A stretch of 64,000 bases of DNA from a phage. Positions within the stretch are counted from its first letter, which is position 1. The number at the start of each line of letters is the position of its first letter. The position numbers and the translations under genes are program-made. This document shows positions 2,215-14,278 of this stretch, piece after piece. The DNA is taken from sequence record NC_103192.1; one strand, given 5' to 3'. The notes below the pieces were generated by a model that saw only the letters and a list, made by a program, of their open reading frames with translations, did no database searches and was not told the origin of the DNA.

Positions 2215-2979
2215 TTGAAATTTATCTACAAAGAACACCACCACAAAGGTGTTGTGTGGAGTCTATTTGACGGGTCTGGTGGTGCAGTCATTGACTGGGC
2301 TAAAGCTGGGTATCTGTGCCTGTGCTTTAACGCAGAAGGTGCTGACCATGGTAGTTATGCAGAGGTGATAACCGATCATCCTAACATTCACTACGTTGAT
2401 TATTGGATTGACCCGTGGTTCCCTCAAGAAACTTTTTGCATGTACCCAGCTCCAGACTTTATTCTTGCATTTCCTCCGTGCACGCATTTAGCAGTATCAG
2501 GTGCTGCACATTTTAAGAAAAAGCTGGCTAAGGACCCTCTGATTCAAATTAATGCTGTAAAAGATGCTCGGGTTGCAGAAGAGTTGGGAGAGATTTACGA
2601 TTGCCCGTGGCATGTAGAGAACCCTGTAGGGGTTATGTCCACACTGTGGCGAAAACCTGATTACCGTTTTCATCCTTCTGATTATGGCGGGTATTTACCA
2701 GAAGATGATGTAAACCCGTGGTTTCCTGAATTTATAGCTCCACGTGATGCCTACCCAAAAATAACTTGCGGTTGGATAGGCAATGGATTTATAATCCCAG
2801 CCACAAAACCTGTCCCGCAAATAGTGGATGCGGTTAGTGGTTATTCTATGCAACACGCTAAGCTAGGTGGAAAGAGTGCAAGGACGAAGATGATTCGAAG
2901 CCTTACACCACGTGGCTGGGCAAGAGCTGTATTCTTAGCAAACGAGACTGTAGTAAGGAGCAGAATTAATGGGCAGTAA
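2215..2979 (+). CDS. putative DNA (cytosine-5)-methyltransferase-like protein
   Basis: Motif I-like LFDGSGG, motif IV-like FPPCT (Pro-Cys), motif VI-like HVENP; TTG start 7 nt after TAGGAGA RBS; short for a canonical C5-MTase. Confidence 0.5.
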   Translation: MKFIYKEHHHKGVVWSLFDGSGGAVIDWAKAGYLCLCFNAEGADHGSYAEVITDHPNIHYVDYWIDPWFPQETFCMYPAPDFILAFPPCTHLAVSGAAHFKKKLAKDPLIQINAVKDARVAEELGEIYDCPWHVENPVGVMSTLWRKPDYRFHPSDYGGYLPEDDVNPWFPEFIAPRDAYPKITCGWIGNGFIIPATKPVPQIVDAVSGYSMQHAKLGGKSARTKMIRSLTPRGWARAVFLANETVVRSRINGQ

Positions 2980-5047
2980 ATTCATGGCATCTGCATATAA
3001 CCGCTATGGAGAGCCTAACCCAGTTGCAACAAGATACAAAAGCGGAGGCAGTATGAAACGAGACTATCGTGATGAAAAAGAGGTCGAAACTGTAGAAGCT
3101 GTTTTAGAAAATACTAAAATTGTCCCTGTTCCACAACAAAATATCGGACTGATGGCTGCACAATATTTTGGGGTGCGATCAGCATTGTCTCAAGAAGACG
3201 GGGTAACGGTCACTGCAACATATTTCCCATATTACGACCGCTACGGTAATCTATCCGGTTTCAAAAAGCGCGATTGGTCTAAGCCGAAAGAGCAGAAAGG
3301 GCACTGGTCTGTAGTAGGGATCGTGAAGGCCAGCTCCCAGATGTTCGGTCAAAAGCTGTGTGCATCCTCCAACAACCGTAAACAGATTAACGTTTGCGAG
3401 GGGGAGGGTGATGTTATTGCAGCATGGCAGGCTGCATATCAGATACAAGTAAAAGGGATTCTCACCAATGCTAAAGCCCCAGCGAAGGTGAAGCAGTGGG
3501 CTAAAGAAGTCCAGGATGGGATCGATGCAGTTATCAACGGCGGCGATCTGGCAGGAAAACCCTGCCTGCCTTTTGTTGGAATTAACTGCGGGTGTGCAAA
3601 CGCCGTAGACACTTTTGCGAACAATGAGAAATTTATCCGTAGCTACGGAACAGTGGTCCTTGCAATGGACAACGATGCAGCTAACGAGGTAGAGAAGCAA
3701 AAACACGTTATCAAAGGTGTTGAAGCCACACATAATATCGCAGCATTTTTGATGGCTGATAACGTTTACCACGTGGAATACCCAGGTGAGGTAAACGACC
3801 CTGATGGTGTAAAAGATATCCGTGACATGCTGAAGGCTAAAAAGCTGGAAGATATTGTCAACATGTTCCGTCACCCAGTCAAATATGTGCCTGATGCTGT
3901 ATCTGATTTAGAAGACTTCTCCATTGAATCTCTTCGTAAGAAGACTTCTAATGGCGTAGATATCAGTGCGGAGTTCCCTAAATTGCAGAAGATGCTGAAA
4001 GGACTCCACAAAGGCACCTTGATGATGCTGACAGGACCATCTGGTGGCGGTAAAACAACTGTAGCCAAGAAGCTGGAACACTGTATTGCAAGATACTTGA
4101 TGGATCCAACATGCCCTAAAGCTGATGATTATGAAGAGGATGATCGCCTGTGCCTGATTCACCTTGAAGAGGATCCAGAGGAAGCAATCAACTCTCTATA
4201 TGCTAACCAGTTAGGGTTTGATGTTAAAGAGTTTGTTGAAGACCCCAGTCAGTTCCTGACCGATCAGGAGCATGCTGAGATTCATCAATCTTGGGCCAAG
4301 GCCGGAAAAATCAAAGTGTTCAAACATTTCGGTTCTATCCCTGTAGATGAACTGATTACCAAGCTTAAACAAATGGTATGTCTGTATCATTGCCGTTACA
4401 TTGTGCTGGATCACCTGTCCATGGTGATTTCAGGGCTTAATGTTAAGGATGAGCGCAAAGAACTTGACATGGCTATGACTCAACTAGCCGCGTTCTGTAA
4501 GCAGTTTAATGTGTTTATCCTGGTGATTGCTCACCTGAAGCGCACAGAGATTGTACCTCCGAAGGATAAGGATGGAAATCCGTTACCTTTCTGGTACCCT
4601 GTACGAAAAGAGAACCTTCGCGGTAGTGCCGGATTGGAGCAACTTAGCTGGGTGGTTGTCGGGGTAGAGGCAGAGGAGATGGTGGATCGTTCCCGTGGAC
4701 GTGTCCGACTGGTAGGTCTTAAAAACCGCCCAGCAAAAACCTTAGGTATTGCAGACACTCTAGTTATGGATCCCCACACAGGCAAGTTCCATGATGCCAG
4801 CAACTGGTACTGGGACAAAGAAATGCAGATGTTTACAGACGGGGAAGGTGGGGAGGTTGTTTGGAGACCTCAGGCTATGTTTGAGGATCAGGAGCATGCA
4901 GTTGTAGAAACACCTGTGGGCAAGGTTGTGGCTGATAAGGTTATAACTCCTGCTGTTAACCCTGTTGACACACAGGAAGATCTTCAGTACGATGATCCAT
5001 CCTCTGACCCGGTCCCTGGTTTTGAGGATGATGAAACGCCTTTTTAA
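2969..5047 (+). CDS. DNA primase-helicase (T7 gp4-like: TOPRIM primase + DnaB-family helicase)
   Basis: TOPRIM motifs VCEGEGD and VLAMDNDAANE; Walker A GPSGGGKTT; Walker B-like IVLDHL; 692 aa. Confidence 0.85.
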   Translation: MGSKFMASAYNRYGEPNPVATRYKSGGSMKRDYRDEKEVETVEAVLENTKIVPVPQQNIGLMAAQYFGVRSALSQEDGVTVTATYFPYYDRYGNLSGFKKRDWSKPKEQKGHWSVVGIVKASSQMFGQKLCASSNNRKQINVCEGEGDVIAAWQAAYQIQVKGILTNAKAPAKVKQWAKEVQDGIDAVINGGDLAGKPCLPFVGINCGCANAVDTFANNEKFIRSYGTVVLAMDNDAANEVEKQKHVIKGVEATHNIAAFLMADNVYHVEYPGEVNDPDGVKDIRDMLKAKKLEDIVNMFRHPVKYVPDAVSDLEDFSIESLRKKTSNGVDISAEFPKLQKMLKGLHKGTLMMLTGPSGGGKTTVAKKLEHCIARYLMDPTCPKADDYEEDDRLCLIHLEEDPEEAINSLYANQLGFDVKEFVEDPSQFLTDQEHAEIHQSWAKAGKIKVFKHFGSIPVDELITKLKQMVCLYHCRYIVLDHLSMVISGLNVKDERKELDMAMTQLAAFCKQFNVFILVIAHLKRTEIVPPKDKDGNPLPFWYPVRKENLRGSAGLEQLSWVVVGVEAEEMVDRSRGRVRLVGLKNRPAKTLGIADTLVMDPHTGKFHDASNWYWDKEMQMFTDGEGGEVVWRPQAMFEDQEHAVVETPVGKVVADKVITPAVNPVDTQEDLQYDDPSSDPVPGFEDDETPF

Positions 5048-12005: not shown

Positions 12006-12371
12006 ATGGAACAAATGAACGATCAAACGTCGGTTGCGATGAACGAGCAAGAACAACCTCAAGAATTTTTCTTAGGGTTAAGTAAAGATCAAGTGTCTCT
12101 TCTGCTAGTGCTTTCTTCTTTCATGGGAAGACTTCAGGAGCTTACACAACAGCCAGAGGCTGAACAATTATTCCAGGCGCTGCGTGAAGAAGAAAAATAT
12201 CGTCGTTTGGACTATGCCTTAGGTTGGGTAGCTCAACAACGAGATATGCTGATGGCCCTCTCTGGGACCACAAGTTTTGCAATGGGCCTGTTGGCTCAAG
12301 TTCAGGACAAATTAATTCAAGCAGGGTTTGCACACACAGCAAACACCAACGAAGAACAAGGAGACAAATAA
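12006..12371 (+). CDS. hypothetical protein
   Basis: RBS GGAGA. Confidence 0.55.
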   Translation: MEQMNDQTSVAMNEQEQPQEFFLGLSKDQVSLLLVLSSFMGRLQELTQQPEAEQLFQALREEEKYRRLDYALGWVAQQRDMLMALSGTTSFAMGLLAQVQDKLIQAGFAHTANTNEEQGDK

Positions 12372-13639
12372 TGAGTGTTATTCAACAATTTGCCAACCCG
12401 ATGAATCCGCGTGAGACTGTTTTACTGGCTCACGGCATGATTAAACGTGTTAGCATCAAGCCTATCAAAGGTGCTGATCCTACAACAGGTATTAAAACCA
12501 CTGTGTGGCAAGGTAAGAAAATTGAATCCAGCCACACCATTTCTTTACTGATTTCTGAACTGGATTCCTCTGATAACCTGCTTCAAGGTGGTGAAGAAGT
12601 CTGGATCAGCATGGGTGATAAGCTGCTTAAGCCTGGTCATCAAGACTCCGTCTCTGTTAAAATTGATGACAAGTGGGAAACAGTAACGCCAGGATGGATC
12701 GTAAATATCCCTTTAAAGGCAAATGAGCATAACGGTAAGACCTACTACAAAGGCTCACTGGCTAAAATGGTTAAGTTGGGGGCAGGAGAGGCTCCAGCAG
12801 CGACTCAGCAGCAAAAACAGCAACAAGGTGCACAATCACAAGGTCAGAAGCAGAAACCTCAGCAGAATGCCAATCAGGACGTTTTACGCATCTATGGCGA
12901 TGTGACTCAGATTGTTGGCAACGTGGTTACTGTTAATGACCACAAGATTGGCGAAGGTGCCATGGTTGTCACTGATGAGCAGCTTAAAGATCTGGTGGTA
13001 GGTGGTCGTGTTGCAGCCATTGTTGACAAAGACACCGGAAACATTATCAGTGGTTTCAAAGCCTATCCACCTAAGGCAGAGAACGGCACTCAAGGCTCTG
13101 GTGGCAAGCGTAAATCCTCTTACGACCCTATTGGTGTAGAGACGGGGCACAGCATTAATGCGTTGCAGATCATCTTGGATCGCGGGTTTAAGGTAGACAA
13201 TCCTTTAGACGTAGCTAAAACACTACACGTGGTCACCATTGAGCTTAAGAAAGAGTACGCTCAAGCCACCAACCGAACCGAAGATGAAGTGGGTGCCAGT
13301 GTCGGTAATGCGGTGTTGAACGCTTGTCGCCGTATTGACAAGAAAACGAAAGTTGATGATTTTGCAGCGGCAATTACTGCAGAAGCAAAAGATGTCTTGA
13401 CTAATCTGGCTGAGCCGTTGTACGATTGGATCAAGAACGGTGCTGGAGCCACTGACCATCAAGAGCCTCAAGCTGCCAAACAGGAAGCCACCCCACAGCA
13501 AAACACTGTAGACGCTCCTCCTGTAGATGATGCGGAAGACGACCCGATGGATCAGAATCCGGCACAGTATGAGTTCGATGACATACCTTTCGCTCCGGTG
13601 GGTTTGCAATATGGCAAAAGTAGAATCCACGCATTGTAA
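12371..13639 (+). CDS. single-stranded DNA-binding protein-like (Gln-rich linker and acidic DDIPF tip)
   Basis: Q-rich low-complexity linker followed by acidic tail ...[22 protein letters not shown] resembling bacterial SSB C-terminus; ORF continues 15 codons past IPF. Confidence 0.6.
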
Positions 13640-14234
13640 GAGGTGCATCAAGTGTGGAGAGGTGAAAAACCTCTCCGAGTTCTACAAACATCCAAAGATG
13701 TCTGACGGTCATCTTAATAAGTGCAAAGAGTGTTGCAAGAAGGCCAGCAGGGAGGCTGACCAATTTTCCCACGACTCTTCAGAAAAAGGTGTGATCCGCG
13801 TGTTGTACAAGACTCAAAAGTGCAACAGTAAGAAGAGAGGTCACCCACCTCCGACTTACACCAAAAAAGAGTTTAAGGAGTGGCTATACCTAAACGGTTA
13901 CAAAGAGTTGTATGACCAATGGGTAGCCAGCGGATACGACAAAAGGAAAAAGCCTTCTTGTGACAGGATAGATGATTTCAAAGGGTACTCTTTTGATAAT
14001 ATCCGTTTAACGACTTGGGGAGAAAATAAAGACAAGCAGACAGAGGATATTCTGTTACATAGAAGCACCAGCGGTAGACGGTGTAAAAATGTAAGGAGGC
14101 TGGACATGAATGGCAACGTTCTTAAAGAATGGGTATCCCACAATTCTTGTAGAAGAGAAACCGGAATATGTGTTGATTACTACATTCATGAAAAAATTCC
14201 AGCCCCAGATGGATACCTCTACGAATACTTTTAG
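13611..14234 (+). CDS. putative HNH homing endonuclease with N-terminal zinc finger
   Basis: [18 protein letters not shown]...CKECCK N-terminal Cys cluster; [25 protein letters not shown] resembles HNH IDRID..GY..N motif. Confidence 0.55.
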
Positions 14235-14250
14235 CACCTAACTAACATAG

Positions 14251-14278
14251 CCCTGCCCGAAAGGGTGGGGCATTTTTG
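14251..14278 (+). terminator. rho-independent terminator (identical hairpin to 2172)
   Basis: ccctgcccgaaagggtgggg + CATTTTTG. Confidence 0.6.

Follow-up and report, generated by a model that had tools for sequence, protein, structure and literature searches.

The C-terminal tip of SSB, the protein that binds single-stranded DNA, is a textbook motif whose function depends on its standing at the extreme C-terminus. Here we consider a phage gene in which a tip of this kind is internal. It is an SSB-like gene in sequence record NC_103192.1, a stretch of 64,000 nt referred to below, at its full length, as the window; its DDIPF codons are followed by 15 further codons (the 'extension'), which overlap the start of a gene for an HNH-type endonuclease.

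Acidic C-terminal tails that end in Phe are also carried by gp2.5 and gp4 of phage T7, and the terminal position of the Phe is reportedly essential according to the Richardson laboratory. As in T7, both the SSB-like protein and the primase-helicase of the phage studied here have an acidic tail of the Phe type, i.e. an SSB-type tail; unlike in T7, a common natural allele buries the Phe in rV5-like phages. In comparison with the tail of Escherichia coli SSB (DDDIPF), the tail encoded in the window is likewise acidic and disordered, with a block ending in D-D-I-P-F placed after an OB fold and a disordered linker. The E. coli tail enters pockets of ExoI, RecO, chi, PriA and others, whereas the Phe encoded in the window is internal, with no terminal carboxylate to serve as an anchor. 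In RecO, it is Arg132 that anchors the carboxyl end of the SSB tail (PMC3152348).

A described relative of the SSB-like protein is Bas52_0087, encoded by phage RudolfGeigy and reported to be what the DRT10/UG17 reverse-transcriptase defence requires from the phage in order to be triggered; the preprint reporting it notes the FDDDIPF tip, ties the tip to ExoI/SbcB and places the DRT10 escape mutations at a predicted oligomer interface, while extended alleles are not mentioned (bioRxiv 10.64898/2026.04.29.721553). The window protein is syntenic with Bas52_0087, has the same neighbour genes and is 98% identical to it over 408 aa, with the escape sites D252 and Y351 conserved; the two proteins share the OB domains, the helical bundle and the acidic tail. 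They differ in that FDDDIPF-COOH is the end of Bas52_0087, whose gene is not followed by one for an endonuclease.

The second element of the locus has its own known counterparts. Free-standing homing endonuclease genes occur in phages, e.g. the seg and mob genes of T4 and genes of I-HmuI-type HNH enzymes. The gene found here is like them in being present or absent in near-identical genomes, with sharp junctions and an intergenic insertion point, and in having modular DNA-binding parts (a zinc ribbon and a NUMOD-like tail) and a conserved coding target. It is unlike them in that the C-terminus of the upstream protein is rewritten with a conserved peptide and the endonuclease start lies inside the codons of this peptide; unlike HNH homing enzymes, the window enzyme has Arg where His is expected. 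We consider it probable that the 3′-end of the SSB-like gene has received a homing-type cassette of ∼640 nt, aimed at tip-coding gene ends and bearing a post-tip peptide that is under selection.

The SSB-like gene and the overlapping endonuclease gene

Comparison of the region with relatives identified the SSB-like open reading frame (ORF) as the counterpart of rV5 gp209, a 'hypothetical protein'. The encoded tail reads ...QYEFDDIPF, then 15 further residues ending in ...IHAL, then stop. The first-pass annotation of the window, made from the letters alone, had described DDIPF as internal, 15 codons before the stop, in a frame overlapping the endonuclease ATG at 13611, and this description proved exact when the sequence was checked. 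A Pfam search with the SSB-like protein gave nothing (no PF00436) and NCBIfam gave nothing usable. The protein belongs to PHROG 4477, a family with no assigned function (E 2e-170, residues 1-407), whose profile ends at the tip; a profile of the whole protein run against PDB sequences had a sole match, the E. coli SSB tail, which was not significant (E 0.27-0.63). By sequence comparison the window protein is SSB-like and falls outside the bacterial SSB family.

An AlphaFold2 model, built from 43 homologues, predicts two beta domains, one at residues 1-140 and a second, small one at 170-236, with a disordered Q-rich linker between them; a bundle of four helices (250-358) and a disordered acidic tail (359-422) follow. 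The first beta domain is modelled as an SSB-type OB fold, and on the strength of this fold the protein would bind single-stranded DNA and oligomerize. An IPF tip at the extreme C-terminus, with its free carboxylate, is missing from the window protein and present in the HNH-free orthologues. The window protein is a member of the Bas52_0087/PHROG 4477 family and resembles an SSB at the level of fold and tail, without the terminal tip. As a separate observation, the Q-rich linker, predicted to be disordered (window positions 12795-12880, residues ∼141-169), varies in length among near-identical phages; the linker of P0002 is shorter by four residues.

The endonuclease ORF overlaps the SSB-like ORF by 29 nt; the 15 extension codons contain its ribosome site and start codon along with the first 9 of its codons. 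The enzyme is of the PHROG 1035 type and has three parts: a Cys4 zinc ribbon occupies the N-terminus, the core that comes next is HNH-like except that 'DR' replaces 'DH', and a NUMOD-like segment forms the C-terminus (...GYLYEYF). In the alignment of the endonuclease family D118-R119 is invariant at the place where HNH_3-type enzymes have D-H, so that the expected catalytic His is lacking; Y25, Y66 and Y126 are invariant as well. Searches against Pfam and NCBIfam returned no HNH match for this protein. The closest solved structure is that of PacI, an HNH enzyme; PacI uses Tyr in place of the HNH His. No promoter or terminator was found between the SSB-like and endonuclease genes in a sequence scan of the locus. 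Since a terminator common to both genes stands at 14250, past the endonuclease gene, and none separates them, the predicted signals show the two genes to be co-transcribed.

The features of the locus are collected in Table 1. The gene immediately upstream (12006-12371; 121 aa, PHROG 7310, function unknown) abuts the SSB-like start codon; in one GenBank record (JLBYU08) this gene is called a putative SSB.

Table 1. Features of the window discussed in the text
Feature	Position	Strand	Remarks
SSB-like gene	12371..13639	+	ORF, 422 aa; TAA stop 13637-13639
Internal tip codons DDIPF	13577..13591	+	From sequence; the PHROG 4477 profile stops here
15-codon post-tip extension and TAA	13592..13639 (codons 13592-13636)	+	Motif conserved in homologues and in other families
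Insertion relative to HNH-free Vequintavirus	13592..14231	+	640 nt, extension plus endonuclease gene; from alignments
GGTGGG, Shine-Dalgarno-like	13597..13602	+	Inside extension codons, 8 nt before ATG 13611
Endonuclease gene	13611..14234	+	207 aa, +1 frame; rV5 counterpart gp208, annotated 'endonuclease'
Zinc-ribbon segment	13635..13733	+	Endonuclease residues 9-41; common to otherwise different PHROG 2340 HNH enzymes after the same extension elsewhere
TTT TAG, last endonuclease codon and stop	14229..14234	+	Aligns with tip Phe and stop (TTT TAA) of HNH-free alleles
Intrinsic terminator	14250..14271	+	Same hairpin directly 3′ of the SSB-like gene in HNH-free relatives
Primase-helicase (DnaB_C domain)	2969..5047	+	Terminal tip ...FEDDETPF-stop; tip codons 5027-5044

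The extension as a conserved peptide

After D-[DE]-x-P-F, the extension follows the consensus [AS]P[IVM][GT]L[QPM][YF], then ∼7 residues with a hydrophobic end; it is 14-16 residues long and C-terminal, and the window extension fits this 'post-tip' motif. Full-length homologues of the SSB-like protein (31-98% identity) numbered 63; the same motif stood after the tip in 19 of them (for example, APIGLQYGRNFLHCF), and the remaining 44 ended exactly at the tip. In several of these relatives no endonuclease gene follows the extension: in L007 and L008 the next element is a terminator, then convergent tail genes; in L014 and Justusliebigvirus alia (gp036) it is a methyltransferase gene; in PVP-SE1 (gp39, annotated orthologue of rV5 gp209) it is a bidirectional terminator. 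The same extension in HNH-free orthologues was the observation that the first-pass annotation had named as contradicting its reading, and in these five distant orthologues it is what we saw.

The motif is not restricted to this family. It was found on canonical OB-fold SSBs of HK75 (APVTLPFPRHAIHAI), mEp013 and many Vibrio and marine phages; on prophage SSBs of Proteus, Providencia and Salmonella; on SSBs of IncN plasmids and of one phage-plasmid-like element; and on the C-termini of primase-helicases of Klebsiella phage P8734 and Salmonella phage KE23. In HK75, mEp013, the IncN ssb and the P8734 helicase the extension is present without the endonuclease. Altogether the motif occurred in 238 phage records and 107 plasmid records, and the strict GLQY pattern in 38 contigs of IMG/VR as well as 8 species genomes. 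Of 5,426 complete E. coli genomes, 306 or more (at least 5.6%) contain the 3′-end of the HK75-type gene, and this figure is for the HK75 variant alone. A tail profile run against a set of 5.8 billion proteins matched mainly short SSB fragments, and it serves as a measure of breadth, not of counts.

Codon variation was analysed in 13 loci, six of them endonuclease-free. Entropy at codon positions 1/2/3 was 0.39/0.22/1.36 for the seven extension codons APxGLQY and 0.16/0.12/1.44 for the tip DDIPF. Among differing codon pairs, the ratio of synonymous to nonsynonymous ones was 282:95 in the SSB frame versus 32:304 in the +1 frame and 12:314 in the +2 frame; in the endonuclease-free subset the SSB frame gave 54:31. 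These counts, in frame versus out of frame and in the HNH-free subset, show that selection acts on the peptide: at the level of codon comparison, the extension is under purifying selection that is independent of the endonuclease gene, as it appears in the HNH+ subset of loci and in the HNH-free one alike; the entropy profile of the extension is like that of the tip.

The extension is apparently an undescribed tail variant of phage and plasmid SSBs; a search of the open-access literature by motif string and keyword found no account of it, within the limits of that corpus. A paper on Sak4 and the HK620 SSB was considered as a prior description and set aside, as it concerns a different tip, NDYPPF; the ETfinder paper proved to have no bearing on the extension.

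Some further observations concern SSB tails outside the phage family. The plasmid SSB at L019 739-1272 (ssb of the IncN plasmid pYNKP001-NDM) has the extended tail, and conjugative plasmids account for 76 of the 107 plasmid records that match; passage of plasmid SSBs through type IV secretion systems has been reported. Other post-tip extensions were seen on SSBs as well, DDDIPF-LGHGYGVCRKAIYAIS and DDDIPF-APFGHSVSRHALYALS (among P0120, P0124, P0131, P0133 and P0107), so that tip extension may be more general than the GLQY motif.

Allele polymorphism and recurrence with endonucleases

The window region is 94-96% identical to ∼115 rV5-like genomes of the genus Vequintavirus. These were divided by match coverage into three allele classes, the junction itself being read in only seven records (five free ones, rV5 and HeinrichReichert): (i) those with extension and endonuclease (∼30 records, including rV5); (ii) those sharing a coverage of 93% with HeinrichReichert (∼20 records); (iii) endonuclease-free ones (∼65 of 115 records). 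A class with the extension only was not seen in Vequintavirus among the matches listed; within the genus, the extension was seen only together with the window-type endonuclease. In FFH2, JLBYU08, ECP2303, FV3 and Bas52/RudolfGeigy the protein has 408 aa and ends in ...DDDIPF-TAA, and the terminator hairpin of the window follows.

Alignment with HNH-free relatives, a check that the first-pass annotation had proposed, resolved the extension and the endonuclease gene as one 640-nt indel within the genus; record spans are 2001 nt with the cassette and 1364 nt without it, and the insert boundary is ambiguous by a TTT microhomology. At the right junction the window reads TTT TAG CAC CTA ACT AAC ATAGCC versus TTT TAA CAT CTA GTT AAC ATAGCC in the free allele. 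The length of the insert is 1 mod 3, which fits the +1 frame of the endonuclease. From the alignment of the right junction and this length it follows that the old stop was displaced and not lost: the Phe codon and stop of the recipient appear to survive, shifted by 640 nt, and now close the endonuclease gene as its final codon and stop. The fixed differences between extension and free alleles are confined to 25 nt from the left junction. Thus, as with homing endonuclease genes, there is a presence/absence polymorphism with precise junctions in collinear genomes.

The allele of HeinrichReichert is of another kind: the SSB-like gene ends in DDSIPF-TGA, with no extension, and an endonuclease gene lies 8 nt downstream. 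The N-terminus of this endonuclease (L009 1798-2385) has a different, shorter zinc ribbon, MKCKRCGEDKEASDFYTSNKSTCKECC..., and from CKECCKK on the enzyme is nearly identical to that of the window (the segment compared was window 13592-13740). A differing N-terminus joined to a near-identical remainder indicates that the 5′ module, extension plus ribbon, has been swapped by recombination. A side remark is due on the records themselves: sixteen of them are labelled 'Campylobacter phage' (MG0656xx series, host C. jejuni), though over this region they are 94-96% identical to E. coli rV5-like phages; these host labels look doubtful.

We observed an endonuclease gene after the extension in the window, rV5, L006, L015, L016, L017, KE23, phiEB49/SCS31 and L067. 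In all those loci it is in the +1 frame, and a [YH][AG] codon pair within the extension provides its start. All of these enzymes share a zinc ribbon, CxKCGxxKxLxxFYKHxxMxDGHxNKCKxC, and the TAA of the host gene always stands immediately ahead of the first Cys codons of this ribbon. Two nuclease bodies occur on this ribbon: PHROG 1035 (200 aa) and PHROG 2340 (140-150 aa, with the canonical AHHDDY...HHxQWH).

Two groups besides Vequintavirus show the polymorphism. Among canonical SSBs of Drexlerviridae (T1-like phages), those of Rogue1 and C119 end in ...EEDIPF-stop followed by a terminator, and those of phiEB49 and SCS31 end in ...DDIPFAPIGLQYGMSNIYVL with an overlapping HNH gene, nucleotide homology ceasing at the tip. 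Among primase-helicases of Seunavirus, those of KE22 and PVP-SE1 end in ...DMD[NE]DTPF-stop, and in KE23, 99% identical to KE22 over the matched region, the helicase, an orthologue of the one encoded in the window, ends in ...DMDDDTPFAPIGLQYANHAIYVL (a tail also given as ...DTPFAPIGLQYANHAIYVL) followed by an HNH gene; in this genus, the ends of the SSB-like and primase-helicase genes can both carry the extension. An intermediate with the extension only was not found in the polymorphisms of Vequintavirus, of the Drexlerviridae SSB or of the Seunavirus helicase. The three contexts are alike only in the tip codons, and mainly for this reason we read the extension and the endonuclease together as a mobile unit directed at gene ends that code for the tip.

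Another gene, too, is annotated from the ATG within the extension. In the siphophages L013 (gene mEp013_26, 1544-1837), L052 and L056 an Abc2-like gene, of the anti-RecBCD type, is given this start in the +1 frame, and its N-terminus, MAKAGSTRY..., resembles the endonuclease N-terminus, MAKVESTHC.... This suggests either that a different gene has been joined to a 5′ remnant of the endonuclease gene, or that the start site is portable.

Origin of the arrangement and its significance

The cassette that we favour consists of two parts: 15 codons of post-tip peptide, fused in frame right after the Phe codon of the tip, and an overlapping, free-standing endonuclease gene of the homing type in the +1 frame; the whole lies between the tip and the gene's own terminator. 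A donor allele that was already extended would have passed it, through recombination or gene conversion, to an allele ending at the tip; the crossover on the left would fall within the bases that encode the tip, and the one on the right at TTTTA, immediately ahead of the old stop. The recurrence described above suggests that endonucleases with the shared zinc ribbon target the DNA of the tip, or of the extension end, of replication genes; the ribbon is the part that would recognize the target. Translation of the endonuclease would be coupled to that of the well-expressed upstream gene.

At the protein level, the extension would make the terminal Phe internal, remove the free carboxylate and provide a new hydrophobic C-terminus. 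As the carboxylate is a known anchor in partner pockets, an internal tip should bind differently; an altered partner binding, which the first-pass annotation had expected too, is therefore a plausible consequence of the extension. The tip is kept equally well when internal. This argues for a partner that recognizes the composite motif as a whole, rather than for a tip that is simply switched off; most likely, DDIPF-AP[IV]GLQY...h re-tunes which partner binds rather than merely inactivating the tip. Several more specific readings of the motif were tried. An 'auto-inhibitory cap' was dropped, as in the AlphaFold2 model the tail is disordered with no docking of the extension; clamp-binding (QLxLF), PIP-box and BRC-type FxxA motifs did not fit by eye. 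The basic-then-hydrophobic C-terminus is reminiscent of C-terminal recognition signals for ClpX (MuA RRKKAI type), a resemblance offered as no more than an idea.

A number of observations weigh against the cassette. Alleles with the extension only are far commoner than those with extension plus endonuclease, and the peptide may be an old feature of the host gene that the endonuclease merely adjoins. Insertion, as opposed to precise loss, is judged from the distribution of alleles, and homing and cleavage by the cassette enzyme are proposed by comparison; with the canonical catalytic His missing and the profile searches silent, the activity of the window enzyme is putative. The left flank is not strictly linked to the cassette: L021, a free allele, has the rV5-type 'DFCDDIPF'. 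The endonuclease genes of different contexts are only 45-67% identical in DNA, so that a recent jump from one context to another was looked for and not seen; with a divergence of 33-55% the association must be old. The modelled tail is of low confidence and lends no structural support to a function of the peptide, and in a search with the tail profile against the PDB no solved chain contained the extension.

Other explanations have to be weighed against this one. In the first-pass annotation, one reading was that insertion of the endonuclease gene had removed the stop codon of the SSB-like gene and so extended the protein. Taken strictly, this means read-through to the next chance stop, with 15 residues that carry no meaning and are likely to impair the tip. 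One part of this stands: HNH-free Vequintavirus alleles that were read do end in DDDIPF-TAA, the extension in this genus comes only with the endonuclease, and it overlaps the ribosome site and start of the latter. The stop, as we saw above, was displaced, and the extension is a conserved, selected peptide; it recurs with the same length at 31-98% identity of the host protein and in unrelated proteins, also where no endonuclease is downstream, and variation at third positions with residues kept is the mark of selection. Synonymous divergence also opposes a recent deletion of the endonuclease gene in the HNH-free carriers. Read-through is therefore very improbable. We regard as slighter still the chance that the peptide sequence is kept by nucleotide constraints of the overlapping gene (ribosome site, ATG and N-terminal codons). 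The ATG does lie within the QY[GA] codons, and at every HNH+ locus the N-terminus of the endonuclease is encoded in part by the final 4-10 codons of the extension; yet L008 has TAC GGT at this position, with no ATG, the codon ratios given above favour the SSB frame even in the HNH-free subset, and in many carriers what comes directly downstream is a terminator or some unrelated gene. The least credible alternative is that of an artefact (a false indel near 13590-13600, where the first-pass annotation had advised a check of the reads) or of a programmed +1 frameshift giving an SSB-endonuclease fusion. It is true that the +1 frame is open from 13527. Against an artefact, ∼30 independent records, including rV5, share the exact arrangement, which thus is not a sequencing error; against a frameshift, no slippery motif was noticed, the RNA fold of the junction was no better than that of shuffled sequence (z = -0.2), and the endonuclease has its own Shine-Dalgarno-like site and ATG and is annotated separately.

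An explanation that deserves more weight, and which we still hold rather unlikely, treats the extension as an ancient, independent variant of the SSB tail and the endonuclease as an unrelated passenger that homes just past the extension stop. Vequintavirus would have acquired the extension by co-conversion only, the nearest shared homology being the tip, and the peptide would not be 'carried' adaptively. Such a passenger fits the dominance of extension-only alleles (SSBs of lambdoid prophages in at least 306 E. coli genomes, IncN plasmids, marine phages), the presence of both extension-only and extension-plus-endonuclease alleles in the PVP-SE1 and phi92-like groups, and the fact that the endonuclease ORF proper starts right at the host stop codon. 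It does not fit as well with three families in which tip-only alleles stand against alleles with extension plus endonuclease, with no extension-only intermediate, as expected if both move together. In the end, the passenger differs from the cassette chiefly in who 'owns' the peptide.

One could speculate further and join the threads into a single picture, which we offer tentatively and think unlikely as a whole: zinc-ribbon endonucleases would land on SSB tip codons, which rank with the best conserved of all short coding stretches in replication genes, with a 15-residue 'patch' of their own evolution, rewriting the partner-binding tails of SSBs, SSB-like proteins and primase-helicases; the extension-only SSBs of prophages and IncN plasmids would be footprints of past invasions, kept since the patch is functional; and the patch would alter recognition by tip-dependent host factors and defences (ExoI/SbcB, DRT10). 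If this is true, a selfish cassette doubles as a switch in the conflict between phage and host.

What we saw has a bearing on SSB tails beyond this locus. A common natural allele buries the SSB tip under a conserved peptide, with the tip residues equally conserved, and this prompts two questions: what the binding partner of the composite motif is, and whether its spread is the work of a homing endonuclease. The protein encoded in the window is orthologous to the reported DRT10 trigger, whose proposed mechanism involves the tip and ExoI, and the BASEL collection holds natural variants with the tip only, with tip and endonuclease, and with tip, extension and endonuclease. The extension is a widespread, selected tail module, tied to a recurrent mobile endonuclease and found on a protein implicated in the triggering of defence.

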